Source: a virus (Duplodnaviria; Caudoviricetes). Taken from it: 63,588 bases of DNA. The notes under the pieces were generated by a model. It saw nothing but the letters and a program-made list of their open reading frames with translations. It was not told where the DNA came from and ran no database searches. Made by a program: the position numbers and the translations under genes. Where the stretch lies: IMG/VR virus record IMGVR_UViG_3300045996_002625, positions 1-63,588 of that record; one strand, 5' to 3'. Every line of letters starts with the position of its first letter. The first letter of the stretch is position 1. This document shows, in pieces, positions 5,263 to 53,928 of the stretch.

Positions 5263-6677
5263 CGCCCCTCGAAAAGAAACTCGATTACGAGCAGAGCCGC
5301 ATAAGCTACCTGCCCGACATCCACCGCAGCCTCCCGCAGGCCCCTGACAGCGAGAAAGCTCTCCTCTGCTCCTTCCTCCTCGCCCCCCGGGAGATCGGTC
5401 AAATGTGCGCCGAGAAGATGATCACCTCCGATCACTTCCACATCCCAGCGCACGCCCTCATCTTCGACACGCTGATGGACTTCTGGAGGGACAATGAACC
5501 CGTGGACTTCGTCACCGTGACACACTGGATGCGGAAGGAAGGCACGCTTGATCAGGCAGGCGGCTCAGCGGCCATCACCGAACTTTTTACCTACCTACCC
5601 ACCGCCGCCAACGCCAGGTCATACCTCGAAACCGTCCGCGAGATGTTCATCCTCCGCGAAGTCATCAAGGTCTGCACCCATCACGCCGCGGAGAGCTATG
5701 AAGCGCAGGCCGACGTCACCCAGATCCTCGAGGGAGCGCAGAACGGACTCCTCAAAGTCGTCCGCCTGGCCGAAGGAAGCCGGCTGAACACGCGGACGAT
5801 GAAGGAACTGGTCTTTCGCAGCATGGAGCGCATCGATCACCGGATCCACGGAGATTGGAAGATCGAGATGCCCACCGGCATCGTCGCGCTCGACAAAGCC
5901 ACGCTTGGATTTCAGGCGCCCACGGTCACCATGCTACTTGGTAAGCCCTCCGACGGCAAAAGCTCGCTCGCCCTGAACATCTGCGAGCACCTCGCCATCG
6001 ATTGCAAAAAGCGAGTCGGGATCATCAGCATGGACGACAGCGACGACCAAGTCGCCGATCGCCTCATCCAAGCGCGAGCCCGGGTCAACCTCTGGGATAT
6101 CAAGAAGACCGGCGAAATCACCACTGGAGACTTCGACCTCCTTCGCATGGCCGGGACGGACATCGCCAACGCCAGCGACCGACTCTTCATCCGCGACGAC
6201 GGCGGACTCACCCCCACCGAGATCAGCGCCACCCTGACCGCATGGAAGGCCAAGCACGGCCTCGACTTCGCCGTGATCGACCACATCCAGCTTGCCCAAG
6301 CCGATCGACGCATGGAGAACCGAACCAGCGCGGCCGAGGAAGTCAGCCGCAGCCTGAAGCCAATGGCCAAGCGCCTCGGAATCCCCCTCCTCGTCCTCTC
6401 ACAAGTCAGCGAGGACGGATCTGGCAACTACACGACGAAAAACACCCGAGCCCTCGGCGAAGACGCCAACAACCTTTGGAAAATATCTCGATCGGACGAC
6501 ACGACCGACGCTTGGATCCACATCGGCAAGCAGAAGGACGGCCCCAGGAATCAGAAGATTCCCGTGAAATACGAAGCGTGGTGCACACGATTCTCCGACC
6601 GCGACAGGGAACCCGAGCCCGAGCAGCAGCAGGAACTCGTGCACATGGGAAAGCCGCCCACGAAAAGAAGAAAATAA
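5259..6677 (+). CDS. dnaB: DnaB-like replicative helicase
   Basis: DnaB N-domain; GKPSDGKS Walker A; IDHIQL; LSQ; KQKDGP. Confidence 0.92.
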   Translation: MTPLEKKLDYEQSRISYLPDIHRSLPQAPDSEKALLCSFLLAPREIGQMCAEKMITSDHFHIPAHALIFDTLMDFWRDNEPVDFVTVTHWMRKEGTLDQAGGSAAITELFTYLPTAANARSYLETVREMFILREVIKVCTHHAAESYEAQADVTQILEGAQNGLLKVVRLAEGSRLNTRTMKELVFRSMERIDHRIHGDWKIEMPTGIVALDKATLGFQAPTVTMLLGKPSDGKSSLALNICEHLAIDCKKRVGIISMDDSDDQVADRLIQARARVNLWDIKKTGEITTGDFDLLRMAGTDIANASDRLFIRDDGGLTPTEISATLTAWKAKHGLDFAVIDHIQLAQADRRMENRTSAAEEVSRSLKPMAKRLGIPLLVLSQVSEDGSGNYTTKNTRALGEDANNLWKISRSDDTTDAWIHIGKQKDGPRNQKIPVKYEAWCTRFSDRDREPEPEQQQELVHMGKPPTKRRK

Positions 6678-7183: not shown

Positions 7184-8733
7184 GATACGGATCATGCTGC
7201 AGCGGAATCGAGGCAGCCAGCACCGCGTGGACCCCGCTCGGATGGCAGCCCCAGTTCTTCGCCGAGATCGAGCCCTTCCCCTGCGCCATCCTGCAGCATT
7301 ATCACCCCACTGTCCCCAACCATGGCGACCTCACGAAATTCAAAGACTGGCCCGACCATGCAATCGACCTTCTCGTTTCAGGAACCCCCTGCCAATCCTT
7401 CAGCGGAGCAGGACTCCGCGAAGGACTGGATGACCCTCGTGGTCAACTTATGCTCACCTACGGCCACGTTGCTGCGCGATATCGCCCCCGCTGGCTGGTA
7501 TGGGAGAACGTCCCCGGAGTTTTCAGCGTCGACGGAGGAGAAGCATTTGCAAGCCTTCTGGGACTCCTCAGCGGAACGAAGGTCAGCGTCCCCGCCAACG
7601 GATGGCAGAACGCCGGCATCGTCGAAGGCTACCGCAACGCCTACGGACTCGCGTGGCGCGTGCTTGACGCTCAGTTTGTCCGAACACAACAGCACCCTTT
7701 TGCCGTACCCCAACGACGGCGCCGTGTGTTCGTTGTCGGATATCTTGGAGACTGGCGCCGTGCCGCGGCGGTACTTTTTGAGCGCGAAAGCATGCGAGGG
7801 GATCCTACGCCGCGCCGAGAAGCGGGGAAAGGAATTACCCACCCATTTGCTCCTAGCCTTACAAGCAGTGGCAGGGGAGTTGAACGAGCGGGTGTCACCC
7901 GCGGACAAGACCCAGTAATTGCCGTAGAATGCGGCGACATCGTCCCGCAGGCCATGAGCAGAAAATGGAGCAAGGGAAGCAGCGGTCCAGCAGGCGATGA
8001 AGTCGCGAACCTCGTCGCCTGCTCTCTGACGCAAAAAACCTACGCCGATAACGAGAGCAGGGAGTCGCTCCTCGTCGCCCACACCTTGAAAGCCGAGGGG
8101 CACGACGCCAGCGAAGACGGAACGGGACGCCGCGTCCCGCTGGTGCCTGTCGCCTTTCGAGCCGCAGGCCAAAACGGATTCATCGCGAGCGACGTATCCC
8201 CTCCAATCGCCGCATCCGACGGCGGAGGTTCAGGAGTTCCGACCATCGCCTTCAACGCCCGCCAAGACCCGATCCACAGCGCGGGAGCGGCGCTCCCGCT
8301 GGATACCGATGGAAGCACACAAGCGATCGTCACGGAGGATGTCGCCAACACCCTACGAGCGGGCCCCACGAGCAAGGCGTCCCACGGAAAGCAATCAGGC
8401 ACCGACCGAGACACAATGGTGGCCGTCGCCTTTCAAACCCGAATCGCCAGAAATGGACGAGGCCAGCCCGAGGAAGTCTACCCCGCGCTCAACGGCAGCA
8501 ACGCCGGCGAAACGAGCGACATGCGCCCATGCGTCGCCACCAGGAAAGCCGTTCGGAGATTGACCCCGCTGGAATGCGAGCGCTTAATGGGATTCCCCGA
8601 CCAGCACACCGCGATCACCATCCGAAAAAAGCCCGCAAAAGACGGCCCGAGATACAAGGCGCTGGGCAACTCCAAGGCGATCAACGTCGTCGAGTGGATC
8701 GGACAGCGCATCGCCATCGTTGACACTTTATGA
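7180..8733 (+). CDS. C5 cytosine DNA methyltransferase
   Basis: CSGIEA (I), GTPCQSFS (IV), WENVPG (VI), QRRRRVF (VIII), RRLTPLECERLMGFP (IX), YKALGNS (X). Confidence 0.95.
   Translation: MRYGSCCSGIEAASTAWTPLGWQPQFFAEIEPFPCAILQHYHPTVPNHGDLTKFKDWPDHAIDLLVSGTPCQSFSGAGLREGLDDPRGQLMLTYGHVAARYRPRWLVWENVPGVFSVDGGEAFASLLGLLSGTKVSVPANGWQNAGIVEGYRNAYGLAWRVLDAQFVRTQQHPFAVPQRRRRVFVVGYLGDWRRAAAVLFERESMRGDPTPRREAGKGITHPFAPSLTSSGRGVERAGVTRGQDPVIAVECGDIVPQAMSRKWSKGSSGPAGDEVANLVACSLTQKTYADNESRESLLVAHTLKAEGHDASEDGTGRRVPLVPVAFRAAGQNGFIASDVSPPIAASDGGGSGVPTIAFNARQDPIHSAGAALPLDTDGSTQAIVTEDVANTLRAGPTSKASHGKQSGTDRDTMVAVAFQTRIARNGRGQPEEVYPALNGSNAGETSDMRPCVATRKAVRRLTPLECERLMGFPDQHTAITIRKKPAKDGPRYKALGNSKAINVVEWIGQRIAIVDTL
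7322..7918 (+). CDS. Overprinted alternate-frame ORF resembling the M.EcoHK31I beta polypeptide
   Basis: 198 open codons in the +1 frame; CSLSDILETGAVPRRYFLSAKACEGILRRAEKRGKELP segment. Confidence 0.6.
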   Translation: MATSRNSKTGPTMQSTFSFQEPPANPSAEQDSAKDWMTLVVNLCSPTATLLRDIAPAGWYGRTSPEFSASTEEKHLQAFWDSSAERRSASPPTDGRTPASSKATATPTDSRGACLTLSLSEHNSTLLPYPNDGAVCSLSDILETGAVPRRYFLSAKACEGILRRAEKRGKELPTHLLLALQAVAGELNERVSPADKTQ

Positions 8734-19187: not shown

Positions 19188-19478
19188 ATGATCCAGCCAC
19201 TCAACAACCGCATCCTCGTCAAACCATTCCCGCCGGCACACTCCACCCTGATCATCCCCGAGAAATACATCCCGCCCGAGGTGGAACCGATCGAGGCGAT
19301 CGTCGTCGCCCTCGGCAAGAAGAACCGCGACCGAGCCGGCCGCGAGATCGAGTGGAGCGTGAAGCCAGGCGACCACGTCTTCCTCGTCGACTTCATGGGC
19401 GCCGAGACGTTCCAGAACCTTGAGCGCCACCTCATCGTCAAAGAGATCGATATTCTGGCCATCATCGAGCGAGCATGA
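19188..19478 (+). CDS. groES: GroES-like co-chaperonin
   Basis: IQPLNNRILVK..IIP..VVALG..VKPGDHV..IVKEIDILAII. Confidence 0.85.
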   Translation: MIQPLNNRILVKPFPPAHSTLIIPEKYIPPEVEPIEAIVVALGKKNRDRAGREIEWSVKPGDHVFLVDFMGAETFQNLERHLIVKEIDILAIIERA

Positions 19479-21451: not shown

Positions 21452-21883
21452 ATGAGCACGCCCACCGATCTCTTCCCAGGCTTCACCACCCCGCCGACGC
21501 ATCCATCGCGCGACCTGCGCCCCGCAGAGCGCAAGGAGCCACCAATGCGCACGCCGGCCGCGAAAGAGTCGATCCCATTCACCCGCGAGTATTACACGAT
21601 GAGATGCCGCGCCCACTGGGACAGAGAACCACTGCGCGACGCGATCGGTAACTGGAGCCACTTCCGCGAGCTTCACGAAGCCCTCAGCGAAGCCATGCGC
21701 CGATTCAAGAGCGAAGGCAGAGGAAGCCTCAAGCCCTTCCTCTGGGATCTCCAGAAGCAAATAAGCCCCAACCAGAACACCCTGCACCCGCTCCTCGACT
21801 TCTGCGACCACTACCAGCGAATATTCCTCCGCCGCGGCCTCGTCATTTACTGCGAGATGATCCTCGCCCAGCTTGAGACATGA
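21452..21883 (+). CDS. Hypothetical protein
   Basis: Coupled to terL. Confidence 0.6.
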   Translation: MSTPTDLFPGFTTPPTHPSRDLRPAERKEPPMRTPAAKESIPFTREYYTMRCRAHWDREPLRDAIGNWSHFRELHEALSEAMRRFKSEGRGSLKPFLWDLQKQISPNQNTLHPLLDFCDHYQRIFLRRGLVIYCEMILAQLET

Positions 21884-23547
21884 CCACCGTTGCCGAACCT
21901 CCCCCAGAGCACGCCGCAGCCAACTGGTGGAACCCAGGCGCGTCGATGCAGGAATTTCACGACTCCGACGCCTTCATTCGATTCCTCATCGGCGGCCGGG
22001 GAACCGGGAAGACCGCAGCGAGCGGCATGGAGGCAATCCGCCACGGCTGGCACATCGCCGGCGCCAAGGCCATCTTCCTTCGCAAGACCGAGAGCAGCCA
22101 GAGCGACACCACGATCGAGACGATCGGGAAGCTCTTCGACCAAATGGGCGCGCTCTACCAAGACACCGGCGACAGCCTCTTCAAAAGCTGGAACAACGGC
22201 CGCACCATCCGGATCCCGAGCCGCAAAGCCGTGGAGGCCTTCAATGAAGCCCTGCCATCGTGGGAAAGCCGCGCCGACCGCGTGAACTGGATCGAGCGCG
22301 AGGGCGACAAACTCTGCAGCTACATCGAATTCCGAGGCCTGCCCCACGCCGTTTCCAAGGAGACGAAGCTGCGCGGATTCGAGTGCTCCATGCTGGTCAT
22401 GATCGAAGCCGACCAGATGACCGTCGAAGATTTCCAGATGGCTATCCCATGCGTTGGACGATGGAAGGGATCAGACCCGGAAACCCGCGATCAGCACGGC
22501 TACATCATCGACAGCTTCATCATCGTCGAAACCAACCCGCCGAGCGACCGCCACTGGATCGCGAAGACCGAGGAGGAGACAGCCAAGGGGATGAACCCAG
22601 GCTACCGCTTCTGGCACATCCGAACCGAGGAAAACGCCCACAACCTCCCCCCGAATTACGTCCAGAACCTCAAGACCGCGTACCGCAACAACAAGGCGAT
22701 GTATAAACGCATGGTGATGGGAGAATACGCCGACGCCTACGACGGGAACCCCGTCTACTACGCCTTTTCGCCGGACGAGCACGTCGGAGAAGACCTTGAG
22801 TGGACCACCGGTGCCTTCCTCATCCGCGGTTGGGACTTCGGCACCTGCAACGCCGTCGTATGGTCGGCATACTGGCGATTCGCCGGCGTCGAATATTGGT
22901 GGGACTTGGCCGAGCAATATCTCGAGGGAAGCGACACCGAGCGCCAAGTGCGCGCCGCCATCCAGCGCACCGAGAACGAATTCGATTTCTGGAACGACCG
23001 TACCGTCTGCGCCGGCGTGCTCGACTATTGCGACCCGGCCGGCAACAACAGCTCCTACACGCGCCAGATCGACGTCAATGGCAAGCGCACCGAGGAAAGC
23101 GCGATCGCCATCCTCAACACCTACGGCATCTTCCCAGGCTTCACCACGACCGCACGCGGCCTGCAGGAGACGCTGGCGACCGTCAACCGATTGCTCGAGA
23201 CCCGGGACGGCCCGCTGATCGATCGAATCACCAAGCTCCCCGACGGCAAGATTGAGAAAGTTCAGATCCCCACCGGCAACCCCGTCTACCGCATCGACAA
23301 GAAGAATTGCCCGATCCTCTACCGCGGCCTCTGCGGCGCGTACCGCTACCCTAACGTAGGAGAGGCAGGCTACGGCAACAACGAACCGATGAAGGGGGCC
23401 GTCGCCGAGAACATCGACCACATCCAAGACGCCGCGCGTTACTCCAAAATTAACGTCCTGCGCCTCATGAAATCCGATGCCGAGAAGATCAAGGAGTCGA
23501 CCCTCAAGCAGTACCAGAGGAACCCGAATCCGAAGAGGCAGGACTGA
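21880..23547 (+). CDS. terL: Terminase large subunit
   Basis: GGRGTGKT Walker A; LRGFE..VMIEAD; TNPP; GWDFG and DHIQDAARY nuclease motifs. Confidence 0.92.
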   Translation: MTTVAEPPPEHAAANWWNPGASMQEFHDSDAFIRFLIGGRGTGKTAASGMEAIRHGWHIAGAKAIFLRKTESSQSDTTIETIGKLFDQMGALYQDTGDSLFKSWNNGRTIRIPSRKAVEAFNEALPSWESRADRVNWIEREGDKLCSYIEFRGLPHAVSKETKLRGFECSMLVMIEADQMTVEDFQMAIPCVGRWKGSDPETRDQHGYIIDSFIIVETNPPSDRHWIAKTEEETAKGMNPGYRFWHIRTEENAHNLPPNYVQNLKTAYRNNKAMYKRMVMGEYADAYDGNPVYYAFSPDEHVGEDLEWTTGAFLIRGWDFGTCNAVVWSAYWRFAGVEYWWDLAEQYLEGSDTERQVRAAIQRTENEFDFWNDRTVCAGVLDYCDPAGNNSSYTRQIDVNGKRTEESAIAILNTYGIFPGFTTTARGLQETLATVNRLLETRDGPLIDRITKLPDGKIEKVQIPTGNPVYRIDKKNCPILYRGLCGAYRYPNVGEAGYGNNEPMKGAVAENIDHIQDAARYSKINVLRLMKSDAEKIKESTLKQYQRNPNPKRQD

Positions 23548-25496: not shown

Positions 25497-26284
25497 GCAC
25501 CCTCATCCCCTCCCTCCCTGGCGCAAGCGCTACTCCAGTCTATGCCGGGGTCTCATTGACGGAGCCGGTCGATCACACAGCGCTGCCCTCGGTGCAGGCT
25601 GCGCTCAACACGCTGCAACTCGTTCGCCGCCTCGCTCGAATCCAAACCTTTGACTTCTATCCCGGCTTACATGTCGGGGGCTATGTCGCTGCGGGAACGG
25701 GCGGGATCTCAGGAGGGACCACGGGGGATGCATACGTGCGTTTGCAAACAGGAGCCACCTCCGCCAGCACCGAGGCGATCTATTATCAGGCGCAACAACA
25801 GTTCGCCCAGGACGGGGTGACGGGGAACGGAAGCATCGACTATTCGCAGCAAATTTCAGTGACCTGGCGATTCAGCTGCTTCGCGGAACTAACGACCAAC
25901 GCGTTCTTCCGCGCTTCCATCGGAAAAAACAACGGAGCCGGGGTGCTCAACGCCTCGGGATTCGGCTTCGAGGTGACCTACAAATCCAGCGGAATTGGCA
26001 GCCTGAAGCTCCAAACCCACGATGGATCACTCCACACCTCCGCAGAGTTGTCGGAGATCACCACCTCGGCGGACGGCCCGGTGCATGAAGTCACTATTGA
26101 AACGGACGGGACTGGGAACGCGTATCTCTACCTCAACGGTGTCTATAAAGGGACAGCCGCGACGGCACCAGCGACCAACGCCGCGGCCACCCGATACCTC
26201 GTCGCTGAAGTGGGGAACGGAGCGGATTCCAGCAACAACATGGTCTACCTCACGATGACACGCGGCATCGTAAAAAAAAATTAA
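25493..26284 (+). CDS. Putative fibre/receptor-binding protein (short form)
   Basis: Gly/Thr-rich, lectin-like; ends GTA AAA AAA AAT TAA. Confidence 0.6.
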   Translation: MSTLIPSLPGASATPVYAGVSLTEPVDHTALPSVQAALNTLQLVRRLARIQTFDFYPGLHVGGYVAAGTGGISGGTTGDAYVRLQTGATSASTEAIYYQAQQQFAQDGVTGNGSIDYSQQISVTWRFSCFAELTTNAFFRASIGKNNGAGVLNASGFGFEVTYKSSGIGSLKLQTHDGSLHTSAELSEITTSADGPVHEVTIETDGTGNAYLYLNGVYKGTAATAPATNAAATRYLVAEVGNGADSSNNMVYLTMTRGIVKKN

Positions 26285-26891: not shown

Positions 26892-27023
26892 ACTCATCGT
26901 CCGTCGGGCCCCACCGACCTGACCTACTTCGTCAGCCTCGGAGACAGTCATTTCACGACAGCGGGCAATCAACTCATCGCGGCGGACTTCGAGGCCGCCA
27001 CTCGCGCGAGTTTGGGATGGTGA
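26892..27023 (+). pseudogene. Orphan second SGNH-like C-terminus
   Basis: DLTYFVSLGDSHFTTAGNQLIAADFEAATRASLGW* parallels DTMSVDGTHPDLAAETRYGTEIVALAASTLGW*. Confidence 0.5.
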
Positions 27024-27089
27024 CTTTATGAGCGACGCCGACCTGCTCGACAAATCCCGCTGACCGATTCTACACGGACCACCTCATGT

Positions 27090-27443
27090 ATGCCGGAATA
27101 CCTGATCACGGCGCTGCTCGGAGTAGTTTCAGCACCGGCACCGGCACCACCGATCTCGCTAACGCAGGGACTCGTCGTCTACGGCCCGCTTGGACTTTGG
27201 GTCATCTGGTTTATCATCCGCGACATCAACGACCGTAAGGATAGAAAGGCCGATCGGGATGACCAAGAGCGAAGACACAAAGAGAATCTCGACGCTCAAC
27301 GCAAGGTCGAGCAGGCGCTGCGAACTAACACGAATTCGCAAATGGTCACCTGCGCCGCTTTGAAGCATTTGGACGTCGCCCTCGGCGACGTCGTCACACA
27401 AGTCAACGCCATGAACAAAGATGAGAATCCTGATCGTCGATGA
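27090..27443 (+). CDS. Holin-like membrane protein (TM plus coiled coil)
   Basis: YGPLGLWVIWFII followed by a charged helical tail. Confidence 0.6.
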   Translation: MPEYLITALLGVVSAPAPAPPISLTQGLVVYGPLGLWVIWFIIRDINDRKDRKADRDDQERRHKENLDAQRKVEQALRTNTNSQMVTCAALKHLDVALGDVVTQVNAMNKDENPDRR

Positions 27444-27861
27444 TGACCCGCACATGGTCGAGGTGCTCGCTCATTTCCTTGAGCCGATCACCTCTAAGAT
27501 AGAGACGACATCGAGACTGCAGACCGCGATCGAGCTATCGACGACTCGAAAATTCAACGTGATCATCCTCGACCTTCTGCTTGAGGACAGCACCAAGGAA
27601 AAAACTCTCGACGCCATCAAGATATTCAAGAGCCACCAATCGGCAGTCGTGGTCGTGTCTGGAGTCCCAGAGCCAACGATCGAGCAGCAAGCCAAGCAGG
27701 CAGGCGCCGACGCCTTCGTCCCCAAGGATAACACCTTCGGAAAAAGCGCGCTCATCATAGCCACCAACGTGGCGCTGATGAACATGCCGAGAACCAGCCC
27801 AAAATCAGAATCATTCGAGTCGCACGTAGAAACACTTCGACGGATGGCGCAAAGTCTGTAA
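27421..27861 (+). CDS. Stand-alone response regulator receiver (CheY-like)
   Basis: ILIVDDD, IILDL (phospho-Asp), VVSG, AGADAFVPK. Confidence 0.92.
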   Translation: MRILIVDDDPHMVEVLAHFLEPITSKIETTSRLQTAIELSTTRKFNVIILDLLLEDSTKEKTLDAIKIFKSHQSAVVVVSGVPEPTIEQQAKQAGADAFVPKDNTFGKSALIIATNVALMNMPRTSPKSESFESHVETLRRMAQSL

Positions 27862-27874
27862 GTATCTCCACGCT

Positions 27875-28489
27875 ATGATCGACTGGATCGAGAAACACCT
27901 CACGAGTTGGCAAACATGGGTGGGGTTAATACTCGGATCGATCGCCAGCATGGCAGCGGTGTTCGTGGCGCTGAAAAACTGCCTGACCGTGCTCCTCGCC
28001 GCCTACCGCGGTGGAGTATTCGTGATCAAGATCGAGGAAGTCATCGGGAAGTTCAAAACCGAAGTGCTTGAGCGCCTCGACCGCATCGACGAAGGCCAGG
28101 CGAACCAGATTCAGATCCGGAGAGCGATCATGGAGGAGGACGAAGCAAAGGCATGGTTTGAAGCCGACCACCGCGGCCACCTCATCTGGGCAAACCGCCT
28201 GTACCGCGACCTCGTCGGAATGGAATCCGACCACGTGCGCGGCCGAGGATGGGAAGCCGGCATTGCCGCCGAAACGAGAGACGAAGTACTGCGCGACTGG
28301 ACGTCCGCATTTGACCATCAGCGAATGTTCGAGCGCGTGCTGATCTTCCAATGCATCCGCGACGGCACCAGGCAGCGCGTGCGACTCTCTGCGTGGCCAA
28401 TCCGAAGGGAGAGCGACGGGAAGATCTTGTCCTACACCGGCAACGCCACCATCCTCTCCCATGAACGAAGAAGCTCGAGCAAAGCGTAA
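27875..28489 (+). CDS. Membrane-anchored PAS-domain protein
   Basis: N-terminal TM; WFEADHRGHLIWANRLY..LVG....GRGW...D..W..PIRRESDGKILSYTG. Confidence 0.88.
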   Translation: MIDWIEKHLTSWQTWVGLILGSIASMAAVFVALKNCLTVLLAAYRGGVFVIKIEEVIGKFKTEVLERLDRIDEGQANQIQIRRAIMEEDEAKAWFEADHRGHLIWANRLYRDLVGMESDHVRGRGWEAGIAAETRDEVLRDWTSAFDHQRMFERVLIFQCIRDGTRQRVRLSAWPIRRESDGKILSYTGNATILSHERRSSSKA

Positions 28490-28645
28490 CCTCCGGCGCC
28501 GAGTGACGCGCCCGCGGGTAGTTCTCCGCCGGCAACTGCACAAGGCCGTGATCATGATGATCGAGAACGAAGCATCGGCGCGAAAATGGACGATGCGCCC
28601 CCTTTTGTCTTGAACGATTAGGACAAATCTGCTCGGAGTGACGAC

Positions 28646-28855
28646 ATGAGCATCACCGACCTCCTCCAGCAGATGGTCGACCACGGCGGAACGATTCACC
28701 TCGCCAGCGACCTCAGCGAAGAGGAAATCGCCAGCGCCATGGCCGACCGTCGATTCGCCTCCGATCCCAAGGGCAACGGATTCGTGCGACGCGTGGCCCG
28801 GTCAGAGAAGAAGGAACCGTATCGCGCAACCCCTCAGCACATGCCCGCCACATGA
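28646..28855 (+). CDS. Hypothetical protein
   Basis: 69-aa ORF. Confidence 0.55.
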   Translation: MSITDLLQQMVDHGGTIHLASDLSEEEIASAMADRRFASDPKGNGFVRRVARSEKKEPYRATPQHMPAT

Positions 28856-29088
28856 AGATACCCCCGTGGGCCAGGCTGCTGCTCTACATGGCAATGTCGG
28901 CCATCCCGTTCTGGATCGACTTTTTCAAACTCAGCACGGACTACAGCCTGCGCGGATTGGCGATGCCGATTCTCTCCTCGTTGCTGGCCATGGTCACCGT
29001 AGCTCTGGCGCGCACGACATCGACCGGCCCGGCCGACCAGCCACCAGAAGAACCCGCACACGAAGATCCACCCCACCACAACCCATGA
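28852..29088 (+). CDS. Holin-like 2-TM protein
   Basis: Two hydrophobic helices and a polar tail. Confidence 0.6.
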   Translation: MKIPPWARLLLYMAMSAIPFWIDFFKLSTDYSLRGLAMPILSSLLAMVTVALARTTSTGPADQPPEEPAHEDPPHHNP

Positions 29089-29303
29089 AACTGTTCATCG
29101 CCCTCCTCACCATCGCCGCCGCCATCGCCCTCTCGTCCTGCGAAACCATCGAGAGCGAGGATGGCACCCGAACGACCCGATGGGACGCCAAGGCCACCAC
29201 GGACGCGATCACGACCGGCCTGAAGACTTGGGAGCAGATCGATCGACAGAGCCGGATCATCGGCTACGACGCCTACGGGAACCCGATCTATCGGCAATAC
29301 TAA
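29085..29303 (+). CDS. Lipoprotein (possible spanin-like)
   Basis: MKLFIALLTIAAAIALSSC lipobox. Confidence 0.7.
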   Translation: MKLFIALLTIAAAIALSSCETIESEDGTRTTRWDAKATTDAITTGLKTWEQIDRQSRIIGYDAYGNPIYRQY

Positions 29304-29376
29304 GCCCGAGCGAGGGCAGAGTTTGGACAAAAGGACATTTGCCGCCGGCAGCAAAACCCTGTAGAGCAGCAACACC

Positions 29377-31659
29377 GTGGACTACGACCTCGAATCGCGA
29401 CTAAACAGCGACAGCACCCTCTTCGACTCGGCGCTTTACAACAAGCTCGCGCGAACCGCGAAGGACTACATCCAGAGCGGACTGAACGTCCTCGACTTCT
29501 ACATCCCCGACCTCGATACCTGCAACGACGTCGTCAACTGCTTCGGACCGATCGGAAAATCGTCCTTCGAGAAGGGAACCGACCGCAACAAGCCGCGGAA
29601 CTTCATCCACCCGATGACCGCGACGGAAATGTGGACCCTCGCCACCTTCATCAGCCAGATCCTCGCCGGCGGAGAAACCGTGCGCCGAGTGGAGCCCAGG
29701 AACCCCGAGGACGAAAGCAAGGCTGACCTGATCAACGAAGTCCTGCGCTGGAACGACAACCAGCAGGACACCTACGGGCAGATTTTCCACTGGTGCCGGG
29801 ACGCCGTCACCTGCAACCGCGGCGTGCTCTTCGACCACTGGGAAGACTTGGTCGCAGTGGAACTCGAGGCAGTCACCTACGAAATGCCGTGGATCGCCCC
29901 CGTCGACGAAAACGGCAAAAAGCAGATCGATCCCGAAACCGGAAAACCTTACCGGAAACCGCGGGACTACAAGGGCAAGGTCTGCACCCGATTCCGAAAG
30001 AAGCGGAAGACGATCGGAGGATTCGCGAAGATCAACCTGATCAGCCCCTACGATTTCATCTGCGACCCCGCCATGCCCCCAGGCCGGTTCCAAGAGGGCC
30101 GATTCGCCGGCCACCGCGTCCTCCTCCCGTGGGACGAACTTCGCCGCCGCAGCGAACTCCCCGTCGACCACTACCAGTATGTTCTGCCGGCCGTCGTCCA
30201 GAAGCTGAAGAACTCCAAGCAGAAGCGAGTGACCAGCATCGCCACTGGATCCACCACGAGCACCAGCCGTAGCTTTTTCGAGAGGCAACGCCGCAACCAG
30301 CCCGTCTCCACCACCACCGGATCCGACAAGATCACGAAGGAGGAGGGAGGCGTCGTCGAATGCTTCGTCCTCCAAGTCCGGATGCGCCCCACGGATTACA
30401 AGATATTCCCCGACGACACCGAAGAGGAAAAGATCGAGTTCCTGATCTCCGGCGACAGCGACCTGCTCTCGGTCAACATCACGACCAACAAGCACGACCA
30501 ATACCCCTACAGCGTCGGCGAAGCGCGCCCGAACGGGCACATGCAGTTTATGCCTTCGTGGGCCATGATCATCCGCGGCCCGCAATCCTTCGTCGATTAT
30601 ATGTGCACCAGGCGCCGCGAGAGCCTCGCGCGCACGAGCGGAAACATCTTTATCGGCAATCCGTCATGGGTGGACTTCAACGCTTTCACCGATCCGGACA
30701 AAGACGGCCTCTTCATCCCGATCACCCCCGAGGGCGCAGGAAAGCCGATCGACCAGATCATCAAGCAAGTGCCCGTCCAAGACACCACAGCGAACTTCTA
30801 CGACGAAGTCGACCGCTGGCAGAAGACCAGCGAGGAAGCCACCGGTGCCCACGCCCCGATGCAGGGATCCAAGGAAGAGGGCGACCCCACAGCGACCGAA
30901 TTCGTCGGCACCCAGCAAATGGCACAGGGACGCATCAGCACGATCGCCCGCCTTCTCTCCGCCGGCGGACTCGTCCCGCAAACGCAGCGCATCGTCTCCA
31001 ACCTGCAGCAGTTCCTGCCCGACGAGATGACCATCCGCATCAGCGGAGATCAGGATCAATTCGACCCCGACAAGCCCGTCCAGCACTTCCGCCGCTTCGC
31101 TCGTGACGCCTCCGAGTTCCAAGACGAAGACGGCAAACCCATGCCGAAGTTTGAAGACGACGGCGAGACGCCCGTCATCGATCCGGAAACCGGCGATTTC
31201 ATGATCGACGACCGCGGACTCCTCCCTGACATCCAAGGCGAATTCGACGTCGTCGCCCACGACGGAGCACTCCCAGGCACCGACGCCAAGAAGGTCGCCG
31301 CCCTCTCGCGAGCGGTGGAGAGCTACAGCAGCAACCCGGCGCTACAGGTCGCCTTCGACCGAACCAAGCCAGGCGCGATCGACCCGATCAAACTCTTCCA
31401 GAAGTTTCTCAAGGCGATCGACCTGCCGACCGAAGGGATCATCGTCACGCGCGAACAGGCACAGAAGAACCTGCTCGAAATGTCGCTCGCCGGAGGAGCC
31501 GGCATCCCGCTCGCCCCGCAGGAACCACCGACACCGGAAGCCCCGATGATTCCTGCCCCGCCGACGATTCCAGACCCGAACGCACCCATGCCGAGCGCAG
31601 CGGAGCTTCCCCCGACTCCGACAGCGGAGCCACCGGGCCCGAGCCCGATGATGGTGTAG
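29377..31659 (+). CDS. Portal protein (P22-like)
   Basis: 760 aa; VEPRNPEDESKA, ISPYDFICDP, TATE motifs; first gene of the head block. Confidence 0.8.
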   Translation: MDYDLESRLNSDSTLFDSALYNKLARTAKDYIQSGLNVLDFYIPDLDTCNDVVNCFGPIGKSSFEKGTDRNKPRNFIHPMTATEMWTLATFISQILAGGETVRRVEPRNPEDESKADLINEVLRWNDNQQDTYGQIFHWCRDAVTCNRGVLFDHWEDLVAVELEAVTYEMPWIAPVDENGKKQIDPETGKPYRKPRDYKGKVCTRFRKKRKTIGGFAKINLISPYDFICDPAMPPGRFQEGRFAGHRVLLPWDELRRRSELPVDHYQYVLPAVVQKLKNSKQKRVTSIATGSTTSTSRSFFERQRRNQPVSTTTGSDKITKEEGGVVECFVLQVRMRPTDYKIFPDDTEEEKIEFLISGDSDLLSVNITTNKHDQYPYSVGEARPNGHMQFMPSWAMIIRGPQSFVDYMCTRRRESLARTSGNIFIGNPSWVDFNAFTDPDKDGLFIPITPEGAGKPIDQIIKQVPVQDTTANFYDEVDRWQKTSEEATGAHAPMQGSKEEGDPTATEFVGTQQMAQGRISTIARLLSAGGLVPQTQRIVSNLQQFLPDEMTIRISGDQDQFDPDKPVQHFRRFARDASEFQDEDGKPMPKFEDDGETPVIDPETGDFMIDDRGLLPDIQGEFDVVAHDGALPGTDAKKVAALSRAVESYSSNPALQVAFDRTKPGAIDPIKLFQKFLKAIDLPTEGIIVTREQAQKNLLEMSLAGGAGIPLAPQEPPTPEAPMIPAPPTIPDPNAPMPSAAELPPTPTAEPPGPSPMMV

Positions 31660-34328: not shown

Positions 34329-34490
34329 GCGCGCGGAATCGCACCACGTGCATTTCCCGCACCTCAAATGAGGCGGAAAAAATGAACGTGACCACCCGCC
34401 GATCAAGGAAACATCGGCATTTAGGCAAACTCTGTCCCCGGAATCAGAGAGCCCTTGTGGCATTTGTCCAAATGGACAAATCTCAGAGGC

Positions 34491-35846
34491 ATGAAATTCG
34501 CCACCTACCTCGCCTTCGCTGCGGCCATGATCGTGGCCGCGATCATCAACCCCCAGATCGCCGGCCTGCTCCTGATGGCGATTTTCATCGTCGGAGCCCT
34601 TCTGAGTACCCCAGCCCGAGGCGTGGCTTACGCCAACGTCGCTGGATTCCTTGGAACTGCGACCGCGGACGCCAACGACAACGTCGGGGAATGGCAGCAG
34701 TACGTCCTGCACCGAAACGGAAAGGGCATGAACTCCGGATCGACGCTCTTCGGCCTCATGAGTCGCCTCGCGAACGAAGACGCCGATGCCCAGGTCTACA
34801 ACTGGTGGGAAAAGGATCCGCTGCGCCGCGTCTTCTACGCGACCGCCGCGCGCACCGATGCCGACACCACGATCTCCTTTGACGACAACGCCACGAGTCC
34901 CGACACCACGATTTGGGTTTTCCTCCGCGCTGGTGCCGTCCTCCTCAACGACCGGACTGGCGAGCGCATCCGTGTTGCGGCCACGCCGACCACGACCACG
35001 GTCACCATCACACGCGGCATTCAGTCGACCAGCGCCGCGGCCATCAACGAAAACGACGGCTTCACCCTCGTCACCTTCGCCAAGGCAAATGGCGCAGTTC
35101 CGGCACGCTCGGCATACGCCCAGCCCACCAGCTACCAGAACTACATCCAGACCTTCAACGCGACGGCCTCGGTGGAGAACGCCTACAAGGCCGGCATCCT
35201 GCGCACGGACCTCGACGGCCCGATCGAGGAAGCCCAACTCGACGCTCTCGAGCAGATCGGCAACGACATCGAATACGCCTACTTCCTCGGCATCAAGGAA
35301 GTCGCCTCCCTGACCGAAGGCGCGACCTACTACACCGGCGGGATCAAGGCGGCCGTCGATGCGGCGAGCCTGACCAGCAACATCCTCAACGGCAACGGCA
35401 GCAGCGGCGTCAACCTATCGGACTTCAACGACTGGATGGAAAACATCATGACGTGGGGCAGCGACGTGAAGCTCTTCTTCGGTGGCCCCCGCGCCTACAG
35501 CGCGATCAGCCGCTACGCGATCAGCGCGGCCGGCGGATACCGCACCACGGACGACAGCAAGACCGTATGGGGCATCAACATCGAGACGATCAAGACGCCC
35601 TTCGGCGAGATCGGCATGGCCAGCCACCCGCTGTTCAAGAACAACGTCCTCCTCAACGACTGGGGGTTTGTGATCGACCTGCAGTTGATCGTCCAGAAGG
35701 TCATGGAGCCTCTCTTCTTCCAGGAATACGAACCGACCAACGGCCAGGACGCCTGGCAGGGCCAATTCCGCGCGAAGCTCGGCATCAAGATGAAGTTCCC
35801 GCAGGCCTTCGGGTACTGCTACGACTTCAGCAAGATCAACGCCTAA
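34491..35846 (+). CDS. Major capsid protein with hydrophobic N-terminal extension
   Basis: YNWWEK, YQNYIQTF, DIEYAYFLG, YTGGI, WGINIETIKTPFGEI..HPLF (SU10/DUF5309-like). Confidence 0.85.
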   Translation: MKFATYLAFAAAMIVAAIINPQIAGLLLMAIFIVGALLSTPARGVAYANVAGFLGTATADANDNVGEWQQYVLHRNGKGMNSGSTLFGLMSRLANEDADAQVYNWWEKDPLRRVFYATAARTDADTTISFDDNATSPDTTIWVFLRAGAVLLNDRTGERIRVAATPTTTTVTITRGIQSTSAAAINENDGFTLVTFAKANGAVPARSAYAQPTSYQNYIQTFNATASVENAYKAGILRTDLDGPIEEAQLDALEQIGNDIEYAYFLGIKEVASLTEGATYYTGGIKAAVDAASLTSNILNGNGSSGVNLSDFNDWMENIMTWGSDVKLFFGGPRAYSAISRYAISAAGGYRTTDDSKTVWGINIETIKTPFGEIGMASHPLFKNNVLLNDWGFVIDLQLIVQKVMEPLFFQEYEPTNGQDAWQGQFRAKLGIKMKFPQAFGYCYDFSKINA

Positions 35847-42007: not shown

Positions 42008-45000
42008 ATGGCCTTCGATCCCTCGCAACCGTTCGAGGTTTTGGACGAGGAGCCGAAGGATAAGCCGCCCTTCGATCCATCCAAGCCTTCGGAACCCGTA
42101 ACCGAAGCACCGGCCGCGACGGCAACCAAGCCGCCGTTTGACCCGACACAGCCCACCGCGCCGGTTTCGGACCAAGACCTGATCAACGACGACACGTTCG
42201 ATCCAGCGTCGCACGCCGCACAGAATCCCGACGACTTCGATCTGGCCTTCCGAATCGACCAAGCCCGCCGCGCGCGACCACTCGGGGAGAAGGCTGCAGA
42301 ATTCGCGGAGACGGTCGCCACGCCGGCCACGTGGGGACACGCGGTCAAAGGCGTCGTGAACTTCCTGACTGGTTTTCCCCAAGTCGCCACGAACACCGTC
42401 CAAGCGATGCTACCTGACGCCGTGCTGAGGACGGCGAAGCAGAACCCAACGCTTACGAGAATGGCGACGATGGTCAACCCATGGGCAGGCCAGGCCATGC
42501 TCGATGCGCCGGCAAAAGAAACCCTCCAAGCCGAAGCGACCCTTACCGGACAACACGGCGAGGAAGCCATCAAACGCCTCGGTCGCATCCTCGAATGGGG
42601 ATCAAAGCCGCTCAAAGAGAAGCGCACATTTCGAGACGAAGACGGAAACCTCATCGAGGACACCGGAGAAGAACTCAAGCCCGTTCAGTCGAAAGAGGAC
42701 GCCAAGCGCGAATACTTCCAGCGCCTCGTCGAAGCCGCGAAGAACCAGATCGCGCTCTCCCAAGGGCAGCCTCTCGAGACGGGCCCGATTGCCGAGCTCT
42801 ACCGCCTCGCCGGATCCAGCGCGACCGAGGAAGTGGGACCAAAGGAACTGAAGCGGATCGGAGCCGAACCCGTCTCCCAGGAACGCATCGAGCGCATGGC
42901 AGCCGCCACGGACCCGCTGAACATCGCCCTTGCCGTCGCCCCGAGCATCCCAGGCGCGCGCACGATCGGCGGTGCCGCGACGGAGGCCGCGGGAAAGGCA
43001 ATTACCGGCGCCGGAAAGGTTGTCGGCGCAACGACCAACGTCGCCACGTCACCATTGCGCATGCTTCGCCGAATGGCGGATCCCGCGAGCGCCGCCGCCA
43101 GCGCTGCCACCGAGGCCACAGCCCAGCAGGGAGCGCGAGGACTGCAAGCACTCGGAGACGCCATCGCCCAGCAGGGAAAGGAGATGCGAACCGGAGTACC
43201 GAGCGCGCTGACCACCAAGTCGGCCACCGCAACCGCCGCCGGCGAGCGTGCGCTGGGAACCGATGCCCTGCGGAAAACCGGCGACGTCGTGGCGCACGGA
43301 GCCGCCACCGCCGCCGGCATTGCCCCGCTGAACGTCGCGCTCTCCGAAGGCGACCCGCGGCAACTCGCAGAACTCCAAGTCGGCGCCGGAGTCTTTGGCG
43401 CCGCCCTCGGAGGCCTGCGCCGCAATCGCTCCATGCTTGTCGAAGGCGTTCGCCCACACCTGCGCTCGGAAGGAGCCCGCGCGCTCGCCGAGGCCGGCGA
43501 AGGAAACGACACGCTGGCTACCCGCAGCGCGCGCTTCGTCATGAGCCTGCCCGAGGCCGCGCGAGATCGAGTGCTCGAGACGATCGGAGCGCTTCAGGGA
43601 CTCCCTATCGAAACCGCCAATGGGCGCCAGCGCGCGAAGGTGTACGTCCTCAGCGAAGGCGACTACCTCGCCGCTCAGCGGAACATCATGAAGGGAATGC
43701 CAGGCGCAGAAGGAGGAGGCCGAGGATTCTTTAACGGTCCAGACGGAGCCGCCTACATCAACGGCGAATACCACACCGGATTGCCCGCCAGCGAACTTGT
43801 GCACACCGTCGGGCATGAGTTTGGAGGCCACGCCGCGATCAGCATCCTTCAGGCCGTAGGCTCGCGAGGGGGCCCGCTCTACGACGGAATGATGAACACC
43901 GCGCGGAAAGCGCTGTATATCCGACCCCCGACCAAGACGAAGCCGGGAATCCCCACGCCGGAGTTCCGCAAGTTTGTCGAAGGCTACAACCGAGCGTTTG
44001 ACCCGACCGGGAAAACGAAGCAGATCGACGTCAACGATATCGCGGCCGTCGACGAGTTCATCTCTGAAACGGCCGGCCAAATCATGGCGGGACGTGGGCC
44101 GGGAGAACTCGCCATCCCCCTGAACATTCAGGACAAGATCGCCGGAGGAGTCGCCGACTTCATGGCGAAGACCATCGGCATGGGAGGAAAAAACAACCTC
44201 ATCGGATCGAAGACGAACTTCGACAGGACCGAATCCGCCGAAGTCACGCGCACCGTTCAGGAAGTGCTATCCGAACTCGTCGGCATGAAGCTGCGGGACG
44301 GGATGGAGATCCCCGAGGCCGAGAAAACCGTCGCCACCAGGCGCGCGGAACTGACCGAGGTTCTCAACCGACCGGCGCCGCCCGACACCGCGCCTCTCAG
44401 CGCACGAGAGCAATGGGTGGCGGAACGGAAGGCAGCGCAGAAGGAACTCGACCAGTTAATGACTGGACCGAAGCCGAAGGAAAGCGACTTCACGGAGCAG
44501 CCCGCCGGCCCCGTGGACAATTCCATGACCGGGATGAAGAACCGCGTCGCAGCCACCCTGCGCACGGAGGGAGTCGACGCCACGGAAGCCTCCCGGGTGG
44601 CACAGATCGCCAACGGCATCACCCTCGCGGAAATGCTCGCCGACGCCCGGGCCAAGGTCGGCAAGAAGCAAACGCCAGAGATCAACATCCCCACCGCCCT
44701 TGAGCCCCCATCGCCTGCGGCAGCGATCAAACCAGAATCGGCACTGAAGATCGAATCGCCAGCCGACGTCACCGAGGGAGCGATAGCCGCGCTCATGAAG
44801 ATGGGCATCGGAAAGAACCAGGCGAAGGCGCTCGTCAGGCTGGCGAACCAGCAGCACGGCAGCCCGATCATGGATACCCCGCACCTCGCCGCGGGAGCCT
44901 TCAGGATCCACGGCGGAGGCTCGGTCAAGTCGGGAGAATGGATCCCCAAGCCCGCCGCCCCGAAAGCTCCAGTGACCGCTGCCAGTGGGATGCAATTCCG

Positions 45001-48000
45001 CGACGAAGCTGGGAACACGAAGATGGTTGTTTCGACCATCGACAGCGCGCCGCAAGTCGGCGACGTGGTCATGACCCGGGACGGAGAGCTACGCCGCGTT
45101 ACTCGATCCATTGGCGACACCATCGACACCGCCAGGACGATCGATCCCCTCACTACCCGCGGAACGAAGACGCACAAGCTCGACGACGTCGCCGTCGTCA
45201 CGCACGACTACGCGCCAGAATCGACAGCAGCAGGCACGGTAGCCCCGCCAGCACCACCGCAGCCCAAACTTCGAGTGGAACCCCGCGGCGACCGATTCAT
45301 CGTCGTCGACGAGGCCGGAAACAACGCCACCAAGACGACCTACGCCAGCCAGCGCGACGCCGAGGCCGCGATCGCCAAGACCGGCAAGCCATCGACCTTT
45401 GACATTCCCAAGAGCGCGGACGGTAATGACGTGATCGACGCCATCCTCGAAAACGGAGGGATGGATCTCTCCGGCATGAGCAAGGAGGAATCCGAGAACG
45501 TCTTCCCACACCGCGGCATCTGGAAAAACAAGCTGATCACCGGCAACCGAAACCAGCCGCCCGATGAGATGGCGCGCATTCTCCTGAACGACTACGGCAT
45601 CGGAGACGGCGACGCTCGAACGATGTTTGATCTCATCAGCCAAGCGATCACCGCCCGTAAATCGCTTCGGTTGCAGACGAAACTTGCCGAGCGCGCCGAA
45701 AAGGGGAAGGCTCCAACCACCAGCAATGAACCAGCCCCAACCGAATCCTCCGAGCCTCCGCCAACTGAAGAAGTACCGGGCAAGTCAACGCTCACAGCGA
45801 ATGACACTAAGCAATCTGCTCCTGCGCCGGAACCCGCTCGCCTTTCGCCGGCCGATGTTGATCGTATCGCTGCCCAGGCCGAAGCGGAAGTAATCGCCGC
45901 GCGCGCCGGCACGAAGAAGAAAGAGAGCACGCTTCCGAAGGAGATCAGCGACGCGCAGATCGACGCCGTCGCCGACGCCCACGAGCAGGGACTGCCGGCC
46001 AATTACCAAGGCGTCAGGTTGCGCACGGATGCGATGGGGAAAAAGACGATCACCGGGACATTCAACCCGAGCCGGCCGTTTGACGCCTTCCTGCTCAAGC
46101 TCGCCGACCTGAGTGAAACCGCCGTCGGACACCTTCAGGCACTGCAGCAGCGCCTCGGGCAGACCGTCACGATCAACTACAGCCACGCCCCGGAGCGTGA
46201 AGGGATCGCCACCGGCGAAGGGCGCCGATCGGCCCAGAAAGAAAGCACCGCGCAGGCCCGCGCCTCCGGCGAGGCCGAAGCACAGGCCGCGGACAAGAAC
46301 TTCATCCCCCTCGAGGTTCGCTTCAACAAGGGGAAGGACACCCCGAGCATCACCGTCCTCGGAGCCAGCCCTGAGAAGCTGCTGAACAACTTCAATCACG
46401 CCAAGAAGGCGCTGCAGGAGTTCGGAGAGCCCGTCCCGTATCGCGACATCCACGACCCGCACCTCGTCGGCGACATGAAGGGAGTGGCCAGGAACCACGC
46501 CAACGGATGGAAGGGCGACGGAAGCGCGCGCATCGAAGGATTCCCCGACGTCAATGTGCCCACGCCGGAGGCCGGGTATAAGCCCTACGAAATCCCAGCC
46601 GACCGATTCGACTTCCTCAACCTCATTCTCGGGCAGGAGAGCGCGAAGACCGGCGTGAAGGGAATCAGCGCAGAGCAGAAGCTCAAGCAGGGACTCGCCG
46701 TGAAGAACAGGATCCCGATGACGGAGGCCGGCGAGACGAACCTCCTGCGCGAGGCGATCAACCGCGGGAAGGGAGAGGTGATTGGACGCGACGGCAAGCC
46801 CACCACGTGGAGCAAGGCGACGCTTGAAGACCCGATGAGCGAGGCGCTCCGGATCGACCTCGTCAATGAGGTGAAGCCTGCCACCGAGAACACCGACGCC
46901 AGTATAAGGCCCCATGGCTACAAAGGTGAGATCGATCGATTCTTCGCCGAGGGCAGCCCCAACCGGACGTTCAGCGCGGCCGGCTTCATGCCAGAAACCC
47001 CGCGCGACAAGGCCCGGGACCGAATGGCGCGTGAGCACGGAGCGATCTACCAAGGAGTCGAGAACGGCCTCGCAGCGTTCAAGGACGAGCAGACCGGCGG
47101 CAACTTCAGCCTGCCCGAGAAGGACATCACCAGCGAGGCGATCAAGGCCAAGGTCGATGACGTCCGAAAGAACTTCGAGGGCGACCAGATCGACACGCCG
47201 GAGAAGCTCGAGAAGTGGATGCGCGACCAAGGCCTGCAGTTCATGCCAGCGCAACTCGCAGGCACCGAGGAAAGGCCGGCCGCGATGAAGAAGCGCGCTC
47301 TGAAGCTATGGGTGGAACAAGGCACCGACTCGCCGTTTTTCCAAAAATGGTTCTCCGGCAGCAAGGTTGTCGACGAGAGCGGAAAGCCGCGGCGCGTTTT
47401 CCACGGCAGCAGGCGGGCCGACAGGATCGACACGTTCAAGGCGAAGCGCGCGACTTCTGGTCCGATGGCATTCTTTTCCGACGACCCGATGATCAGCAGC
47501 AACTACGCGACGAGCAAGCAGGACACATCGCTTGAAGCCCCGTCCGACTACGCCGGATGGTTCAAATTCAAGGACAAGGGAATGAGAACGCCGATGGACA
47601 TCGATCGGGCGTGGTACGCCCTCACTCCTGAGCAGCGCAGTTCCGTATTAGAGCGAATCTATACGATCGGCCATGAGAATCACGATCAGGCAGAAGGTCC
47701 GATTGTTCCCAATTCCCAGAGCATCATGGGGAAGGACGGAATCGACTACGAACTTCGACAGGCGCGAGGCAACGGCCTGCGCGCACTCGTCGAAATCTGG
47801 CTAAATAGCGGCTCTCTCTTTAACGACGAGGAGCAGTTTATGGACGTCCTGAAATCAGCCGGCGTTCCAATGGAGAAGGTGTCATTTGAGAGCCCATGGA
47901 AAGAGGTGCCAGGCGTGCTTCCTGTTTACCTCTCCATCCGGAACCCCCTCGATACCGCCAACATCCCAGAGAGCGTGCTGCAGGCGCTCGAAAACGCAGG

Positions 48001-53820: not shown

Positions 53821-53851
53821 CAGCCCGAAGGACGTCGGGAAAGATTCGCCT

Positions 53852-53925
53852 CGCAGCGTAGCCAAGTCAGGTAAGGCACGAGGCTCATAACCACGCCACC
53901 GCCGGTTCGAATCCGGCCGCTGCAA
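53852..53925 (+). tRNA. tRNA with CAT anticodon (Met/fMet/Ile2 unresolved)
   Basis: Acceptor CGCAGCG/CGCTGCA, D arm, CTCATAA loop, GCCGG-TTCGAAT-CCGGC T arm; TTGACA at 53818. Confidence 0.88.
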
Positions 53926-53928
53926 AAT

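Follow-up and report, generated by a model that had tools for sequence, protein, structure and literature searches.

What use does a tailed phage have for a response-regulator receiver when no kinase to phosphorylate it can be found in its genome? The question is raised by the virus record IMGVR_UViG_3300045996_002625, whose 63,588 bp we analyzed as one stretch, hereafter the window. The record represents a complete virus genome, with direct terminal repeats and a 127-bp exact repeat. At positions 27090-29303, between a tail-fibre-like gene and the portal gene, it carries a module of six genes, all on the + strand, which we designate A, REC (the receiver) and C to F. A preliminary description had interpreted this region as a lysis-like cassette, in which a receiver and a membrane-bound PAS sensor may couple host state to the timing of lysis. 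Our analysis places the conserved core of the module in the gene pair A and REC. We tentatively favor the reading that this pair may form a switch that depends on host phosphodonors and uses A to control a membrane event late in infection, probably the timing of lysis.

The receiver and its membrane partner

REC matches the Pfam family Response_reg with 52.2 bits (cut-off 30.2; E 8e-14), in agreement with a six-frame search. Its AlphaFold2 (AF2) model adopts the (βα)5 fold, with a predicted local distance difference test (pLDDT) score of 81.9, and of about 90 over residues 1-100, and the best solved relatives are the NtrC1, LuxR-type and CheY receivers. In an alignment of 13 sequences at 19-51% identity, Asp8, the phospho-acceptor Asp51, Ser80 and Lys102 are invariant, and Asp7 is nearly so. 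The protein lacks an output domain, and bears an extra C-terminal helix at residues 127-145 (pLDDT 56-68 in the AF2 model), which is conserved within the REC family. A word-based search of 5.8 billion proteins retrieved eight relatives at 44-52% identity, all of them 135-161 amino acids (aa) long and sharing a C-terminal extension of about 40 residues. A further member of this cluster (P0010) was located on a 55-kb contig. Among 50,697 GenBank phage records, tblastn with REC gave 4 weak matches (E 6e-5 to 2e-4), while a scan of GTDB genomes found generic receivers only, at 19-43% identity, among 67 confirmed of at least 598 pattern stretches.

In a six-frame search of the whole record, the HATPase_c, HisKA and Hpt families gave 0 matches at E<=1, other variants of kinase domains lying outside this search. 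The same profiles each matched in 11-14 of 14 reference genomes that served as controls. The receiver is thus encoded with neither a kinase nor a phosphotransfer protein of these families, and no complete two-component system was recognized in the genome.

Gene A, which REC overlaps by 23 nt, encodes a small membrane protein. Its single strong hydrophobic stretch, a putative transmembrane (TM) segment at residues 24-46, is preceded by a weakly hydrophobic N-terminus and followed by a charged, helical tail. The first 25 residues after the TM segment contain 9 Lys/Arg and the N-terminal flank contains none, so the tail is predicted to be cytoplasmic according to the positive-inside rule. The family comprises 28 representatives among 1.84 billion proteins, each of 71-126 aa and free of fusions. 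Gene A matched no Pfam, NCBIfam or PADLOC family, gave 0 tblastn matches in the GenBank phage records, and has generic TM-plus-helix matches as its structural neighbors. Among its language-model neighbors, a BhlA-holin cluster appears at rank 23 with a score of 0.90, which serves as a lead only. Gene A was also considered as a minimal phosphotransfer or DHp-like protein. This candidate was rejected, as His63 is not conserved across the family, no kinase fusions occur among the 28 representatives, and the structural neighbors are of the generic kind noted above.

The pairing of the two genes recurs. A metagenome scan returned 59 loci, only 2 of which were true members of the REC family; these two related loci, L071 and L072, were read as 1.4-kb metagenome contigs. 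Gene A lies directly 5' of REC in both, with frames that overlap or stand 7 nt apart, and A and REC are therefore adjacent in all three loci with this REC family, the window (L001) included. When a gene A profile was run over the six-frame open reading frames (ORFs) of 129 loci, it matched only these three and was absent from the 126 others. The same three, and no others, have a REC that scores more than 200 bits; the best receiver outside them reaches 50 bits. A small membrane protein also follows directly 3' of REC in each relative, a 57-aa protein with two TM segments (2-TM) in L071 and a 110-aa protein with a TM segment and a coiled coil in L072. No similarity was found between gene C and the 110-aa protein or between gene E and the 57-aa protein. 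Upstream, an SGNH gene stands directly before gene A in L071, and an Ig/BNR-like gene precedes it in L072. Single-protein and alignment scans of IMG/VR for relatives of REC, the PAS protein and gene A returned none.

A PAS gene follows REC in neither relative, and the PAS protein occurs in the window only among the 129 loci. Given that gene A adjoins REC in all three loci, the conserved core of the module is A with REC, not REC with PAS, and the PAS protein is a lineage-specific addition. The preliminary description was accurate in its account of the receiver residues and, for the kinase families searched, in finding no histidine kinase in this complete genome. Its proposal of a sensory module is supported in that the genes form a kinase-less phage signaling set whose receiver is intact and which is located among small genes for membrane and envelope proteins. 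The REC-PAS pairing is kept in 0 of the 2 relatives.

Could the module be a functionless passenger, assembled from captured fragments of host signaling genes? The GC content dips at 26-28 kb (0.563 vs about 0.61), and the nearest portal relatives lack the island altogether, as expected for such a passenger. We nevertheless regard this origin as very unlikely. The frames of all six genes are intact and each shows positive coding signal under a codon model, the four phospho-site residues are invariant across sequences as divergent as those aligned here, A-REC adjacency is kept in three divergent loci, and a protein 50% identical to the PAS protein is encoded on a second contig, of about 62 kb. 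The passenger reading is thus contradicted by the retention of both the phospho-site and the A-REC pair.

For the favored reading, a switch charged by the host, we propose the following mechanism. The conserved two-gene unit would consist of the inner-membrane protein A, with its tail in the cytoplasm, and an orphan single-domain receiver with an added helix. Since no phage kinase was found, phosphorylation of REC at Asp51 would come from host sources, either from one of the host's histidine kinases or from a low-molecular-weight phosphodonor, for example acetyl phosphate. Because it has no output domain, REC would have to act by phosphorylation-dependent protein binding. Its most likely target would be the tail of A, given the strict adjacency and the overlapping reading frames. 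A predicted complex of REC with this tail (residues 42-117) scored 0.00 in two runs, a result that carries no weight either way. The controlled step may be a late membrane event, most likely the timing of holin-type permeabilization, in the sense of lysis or of lysis inhibition. The position in the late operon, the membrane neighbors in the three family loci, and the spanins, 2-TM proteins and endolysins that accompany the marine receivers described below point in this direction. The membrane-tethered PAS protein C would have been added in this lineage as a second, cytoplasmic or membrane-proximal input, and the 2-TM protein E and the lipoprotein F are candidates for envelope disruption or envelope protection.

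Receivers in the lysis clusters of Alteromonas phages

Among predicted viral structures, the one that the REC model matched best was gp30 of the Alteromonas myovirus V22, a protein of 149 aa (E 8.4e-7 over 149 columns). In V22, the genes for a tail fibre, a chaperone and a papain-like amidase are followed by gp29, gp30 (the receiver), gp31 and gp32. The 125-aa gp29 has a Gly/Ala/Ser-rich, weakly hydrophobic N-terminus and then a charged coiled coil. The gp31 gene overlaps that of the receiver (positions 8168-8578 of locus L130), and its product matches the Rz-like spanin family phrog_4297 (E 7e-6), while gp32 is a 2-TM protein. The schitovirus A5 has a similar arrangement, with a tail fibre, a chaperone, gp10, the CheY-like gp11, gp12, the 2-TM protein gp13, an annotated endolysin, four further genes and then the portal. 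Its gp12 (positions 5410-5886 of locus L131) matches the same spanin family (E 2.9e-8), and its gp10 is a homolog of V22 gp29 (E 3e-9).

The same four-gene block was found in 6 of 6 loci, namely V22, A5 and four IMG/VR loci, two of which (L133 and L134) have identical scores and may be one phage. In every case, an anchor/coil protein of 122-125 aa and a receiver of 147-149 aa are followed by an Rz-like spanin, whose gene overlaps, and a 2-TM protein, and the block has a papain-like amidase just upstream or an annotated endolysin just downstream.

The architecture parallels that of the window in several respects. A partner of about 120 aa, weakly hydrophobic at its N-terminus and continuing as a charged coiled coil, is followed by a stand-alone receiver of about 148 aa and then by small membrane proteins. 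The block stands after tail-fibre genes in both phages, and in A5 it also stands before the portal. Like REC, the V22 and A5 receivers retain the phospho-site and end in a short additional helical stretch. On the other hand, the receivers are only 19-23% identical to REC, and the marine phages do not have the TM-PAS protein that is present in the window.

The Alteromonas receiver has been published as a CheY-like auxiliary gene within a 'host recognition module', and the authors give the functions of gp29, gp31 and gp32 as unknown (PMC7289586, PMC10579305). The block is reported to travel with the tail fibre and chaperone genes across three phage morphotypes (PMC10579305), which would suit a role of A-REC as a host-recognition accessory that works with the preceding tail-fibre or depolymerase genes, for instance by controlling their assembly or deployment. 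The genes upstream of the pair fit as well, being tail-fibre-like or SGNH genes in the window and L071 and an Ig/BNR-like gene in L072. However, the matches of gp31 and gp12 to the spanin family mean that the transferred Alteromonas module carries lysis genes too. Joint transfer would be just as expected of lysis genes, which likewise have to suit the envelope of the host. Moreover, the next genes of the Alteromonas block encode the Rz-like spanin and the 2-TM protein, and a cytoplasmic receiver has no obvious part in virion assembly. An accessory function in host recognition thus appears distinctly improbable.

Lysis genes and the setting of the module

Genes A and E have the shape of holins, in that each encodes a small protein with at least one TM segment and a charged C-terminal tail. 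This likeness is descriptive only. Phage_holin_9 appears on 7 of the 30 nearest language-model clusters of gene E, at best rank 2 (score 0.91; 51% of the members of that cluster), again a lead only. The position between a tail-fibre-like gene and the portal corresponds to where N4-type phages keep their lysis genes, according to a preprint on N4 (PMC12642591) and to the A5 record.

Several observations weigh against a switch that acts on lysis. None of the holin, spanin and endolysin models of Pfam, PHROGs, NCBIfam and PADLOC matched A, D, E or F. Scans of 58 ORFs or frames, each against at least one library, turned up no lysis family, roughly 20 small ORFs lying outside these scans. Six-frame searches of the genome gave 0 matches for Phage_lysozyme, SLT, Amidase_2, Glyco_hydro_19, Peptidase_M15_4 and Glyco_hydro_108, and likewise 0 for the Rz-like spanin phrog_4297. 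Typical holins have a basic tail and typical o-spanins are proline-rich; the tail of E is acidic and Pro-rich, and F, with one Pro in its mature part and no i-spanin adjoining, is not proline-rich. The failure of His63 to be conserved, from which we conclude that gene A is not a phosphotransfer protein, counts on the same side. So do the two nearest portal relatives (38% identity), which carry no receiver, no island, and only two small genes between terminase and portal. The Alteromonas parallel has its own weaknesses. Gene A shows no detectable homology to gp29 or gp10 (hhalign probability 0.4% and 2.3%), and the receiver-receiver similarity is no more than generic (hhalign 90.9%, with 32% identity across 98 columns). 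Furthermore, no relative of any V22 or A5 lysis protein, be it Rz-like spanin, 2-TM protein, amidase or endolysin, was detected in the window. Since homology of the partners was not detected and relatives of the marine lysis proteins are missing, the parallel may reflect convergence or coincidence. The resemblance between the window and the Alteromonas phages is one of architecture and position, not one of demonstrated homology.

Hence a lysis cassette, as suggested by the term lysis-like in the preliminary description, is not established for this genome, in which no endolysin, holin or spanin family was detected. The lysis enzymes of the phage are either novel or encoded among the roughly 20 unscanned small ORFs. 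The label holin-like survives for A and E by shape, but not by any match to a holin model. As to the linkage of such receivers to lysis genes in relatives, the outcome is divided, with the nearest portal relatives lacking the island and 6 of 6 loci from an independent group of cultured and uncultured Alteromonas phages placing the receiver in a lysis cluster.

The lack of a detected lysis family in the genome would be expected of an island for superinfection exclusion or envelope protection, in which E, F and perhaps A act at the envelope under the regulation of REC and the PAS protein and no gene serves lysis. Four of the six module products are membrane proteins or lipoproteins, T-even and T5 phages have exclusion proteins that are small 2-TM proteins or lipoproteins, and the position is variable, the module being missing from the closest portal relatives. 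Yet no similarity to exclusion families was found (nothing significant in PADLOC or PHROGs), and the Alteromonas analogs place the receiver beside a spanin and an endolysin. We therefore judge an exclusion island improbable, and retain the timing of lysis as the preferred, though tentative, reading.

The PAS protein encoded by gene C consists of an N-terminal hydrophobic segment (residues 13-44), a long, continuous helix that ends near residue 88, and the PAS domain itself (about residues 90-197), and has no output domain. Two profiles recognized it (PAS_4, 26.3 bits, cut-off 23.1; TIGR00229, 34.7 bits, cut-off 22.9), and a search of PDB sequences gave no match. In the AF2 model (pLDDT 68), the PAS part is a five-stranded sheet with helices. 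The top PDB match in Foldseek is the FAD-PAS domain of NifL (2gj3; E 5.5e-7, TM-score 0.78 by target), and the nearest folds are the flavin PAS domains of NifL, LOV and Aer. By eye, gene C does not keep the flavin-contact helix motif of these families. Its one relative (P0015), 50% identical, is the protein on the contig of about 62 kb mentioned above, and tblastn gave 0 matches in the GenBank phage records.

The genes that the preliminary description had named are present in the order that it gave and on the + strand; it had left out the 69-aa gene D and a doubtful 50-aa ORF at the end of gene C (Table 1). Gene F gave only weak, sub-threshold matches to lipoprotein families in Pfam and NCBIfam.

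Table 1. Features of the module and of its surroundings in the window
Feature	Coordinates	Strand	Evidence and remarks
Large terminase	21880-23547	+	Recognizable family; small terminase also identified
Tail-fibre-like gene, 263 aa	25493..26284	+	Weak ConA/Laminin_G_3 similarity (19.6 bits, below cut-off 27.6); coding frame
SGNH/GDSL hydrolase domain, 192 codons, no own start codon	26287..26865	+	-1 frame; Lipase_GDSL_2 44.3 bits vs cut-off 32.9
Gene A, 117-aa membrane/coiled-coil protein	27090..27443	+	ORF, codon model, hydrophobicity
REC, stand-alone response-regulator receiver, 146 aa	27421..27861	+	PF00072, AF2, alignment
Gene C, 204-aa TM-coil-PAS protein	27875..28489	+	PAS_4, TIGR00229, AF2, Foldseek
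Very basic ORF, 50 aa, doubtful	28461..28613	+	Overlaps end of gene C; weak coding signal (about 5); no PHROG family
Gene D, 69-aa soluble protein	28646..28855	+	No Pfam, PHROG, NCBIfam or PADLOC family
Gene E, 78-aa protein, two hydrophobic segments	28852..29088	+	Holin-like by shape only
Gene F, 72-aa predicted lipoprotein	29085..29303	+	Signal peptide, lipobox-type Cys19; overlaps E by 4 nt
Portal protein	29377..31659	+	Pfam SU10_portal 73.2 bits, portal PHROGs; downstream boundary of variable island
Major head protein	34455-35846	+	Recognizable family

The module is best explained as a late-operon accessory set of a novel, podovirus-like soil phage. No nucleotide match to the genome was found among the GenBank phage records, and its portal is only 20-24% identical to those of cultured phages, two IMG/VR contigs reaching 38%. 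Because these two nearest portal relatives have neither the receiver nor the island, the region 27090-29303 is a variable island between terminase and portal. All clear coding signal lies on the + strand, according to the codon model, whose training set was ten long genes of this genome. Replication and recombination genes were also recognized.

Upstream of the module, nine consecutive A residues (26272-26280) stand shortly before the end of the tail-fibre-like gene, and the frame of the SGNH domain can be reached from it only via a -1 shift at this run. The run represents either programmed -1 or transcriptional slippage, which would yield a ConA-SGNH fusion, or a homopolymer assembly error. 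The idea, gained by eye, that 26892-27017 is a remnant of the SGNH C-terminus was rejected, as BLASTP gave no alignment.

Within the module, Shine-Dalgarno-like sequences are missing by eye before most genes, and only D has a GGAG at about -12. From 27060 to 29380, A strongly exceeds T on this strand throughout (AT skew 0.13-0.38). Between 23500 and 32500, a scan for promoters and terminators yielded 1 promoter-like site and 8 terminator-like ones, numbers not above those of shuffled sequences, and no terminator-like site on the + strand.

Elsewhere in the genome, a single ORF of 3146 aa (42008-51448) contains an ART-PolyVal ADP-ribosyltransferase domain (81.9 bits). Its product is a polyvalent protein that is probably injected; identification as an N4-type virion RNA polymerase was rejected, ART-PolyVal being the only Pfam family above cut-off. 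A 207-aa protein (2100-2723) has a C-terminal J domain (DnaJ, 33.1 bits vs cut-off 27.8), and 19188-19478 resembles GroES by eye. The sole tRNA gene, tRNA-Met (CAT), lies at 53851-53926, within a zone of weak coding signal at 52.4-55.2 kb.

Comparison with known systems

Stand-alone CheY-like genes in phages are already in print (PMC7289586, PMC10579305). In the literature searched, we found no report of a receiver domain in a phage lysis cassette, of the recurrent pairing of a receiver with a small membrane-associated partner, of receivers placed beside spanin, holin-like and endolysin genes, or of the gene A family and the added membrane PAS sensor. A wider proposition would be that unrelated tailed phages carry a kinase-less phospho-switch in their lysis clusters, in which a receiver charged by the host binds a small partner of the holin or antiholin type and sets or delays lysis according to the energy, stress or superinfection state of the host, the PAS protein being a second input here. 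We consider this generalization doubtful.

The timing of lysis decides burst size and phage fitness. To our knowledge, few schemes of lysis timing are understood, among them dual-start antiholins and the T4 RI/T lysis inhibition, and the N4 scheme is still unresolved. If a receiver with its own small membrane partner, and without a phage kinase, does recur beside spanin, holin-like and endolysin genes across unrelated phages, it would link host physiology directly to the lysis clock. A phospho-switch in lysis clusters would, if real, constitute a new class of control over lysis timing or lysis inhibition. The idea is testable in cultured phage-host pairs, namely V22 and A5 with Alteromonas.

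Among the known systems, phage N4 offers a comparison in both position and logic. Its lysis genes gp60-gp63 form one late cassette of spanins, a signal-arrest-release (SAR) endolysin, a lysis regulator and a pinholin, and the phage shows lysis inhibition (PMC12642591). As in N4, small membrane proteins are clustered next to the portal gene in the window. For N4, the proposal is that a cytoplasmic regulatory region governs the timing of lysis; the authors name this part of the pinholin 'Receiver domain' (PMC12642591). Unlike REC, it is not a CheY-type receiver. In addition, N4 has a recognizable endolysin and spanins, and none were detected in the window.

A second comparison, with proteins that divert phosphoryl groups, bears on an alternative in which the module intercepts host signaling. 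REC would then be a phosphate sink or decoy that drains a host two-component pathway, such as envelope stress, phosphotransfer-based defense or motility, while A tethers it near host kinases and the PAS domain might pair with the sensor of a host kinase. The intact phospho-site and the lack of a detected phage kinase would suit such a role, and receivers that buffer phosphate are documented. DtcB of the bacterial Detocs system is a stand-alone receiver proposed to soak up phosphoryl groups; like REC, it is a single-domain protein with no output domain, and its phospho-acceptor Asp matters (bioRxiv 10.1101/2023.01.24.525353). The phage protein PIT4 is reported to perturb host two-component systems (PMC10714779), and the Alteromonas homolog was published as a signaling auxiliary metabolic gene (AMG) (PMC7289586, PMC10579305). 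By contrast, DtcB is encoded with its own kinase and effector, and REC has a dedicated membrane partner and no kinase. No phage-encoded inhibitor of Detocs was found in the literature searched, and PADLOC gave no significant family for the module (best match 19 bits), the presence of Detocs models in that release being unconfirmed. Besides, the genes belong to the late structural operon, and in both relatives they abut or overlap a tail-fibre-like gene. Genes for host takeover and anti-defense are usually early. Nor would interception explain why REC is strictly paired with a small membrane protein of its own, or why spanin, 2-TM and endolysin genes adjoin the receiver in 6 of 6 Alteromonas-type loci. 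On balance we find it unlikely; if it were true, it would add a way for phages to tap host two-component signaling.

The locus differs from classical two-component systems in that no HATPase_c, HisKA or Hpt domain was found in the genome and REC is joined to no output domain. The receiver itself keeps what CheY and the classical receivers have, namely the canonical (βα)5 fold, the acidic pair, the phospho-acceptor Asp, the Ser and the Lys, and it differs from them in the extra helix at its C-terminus.

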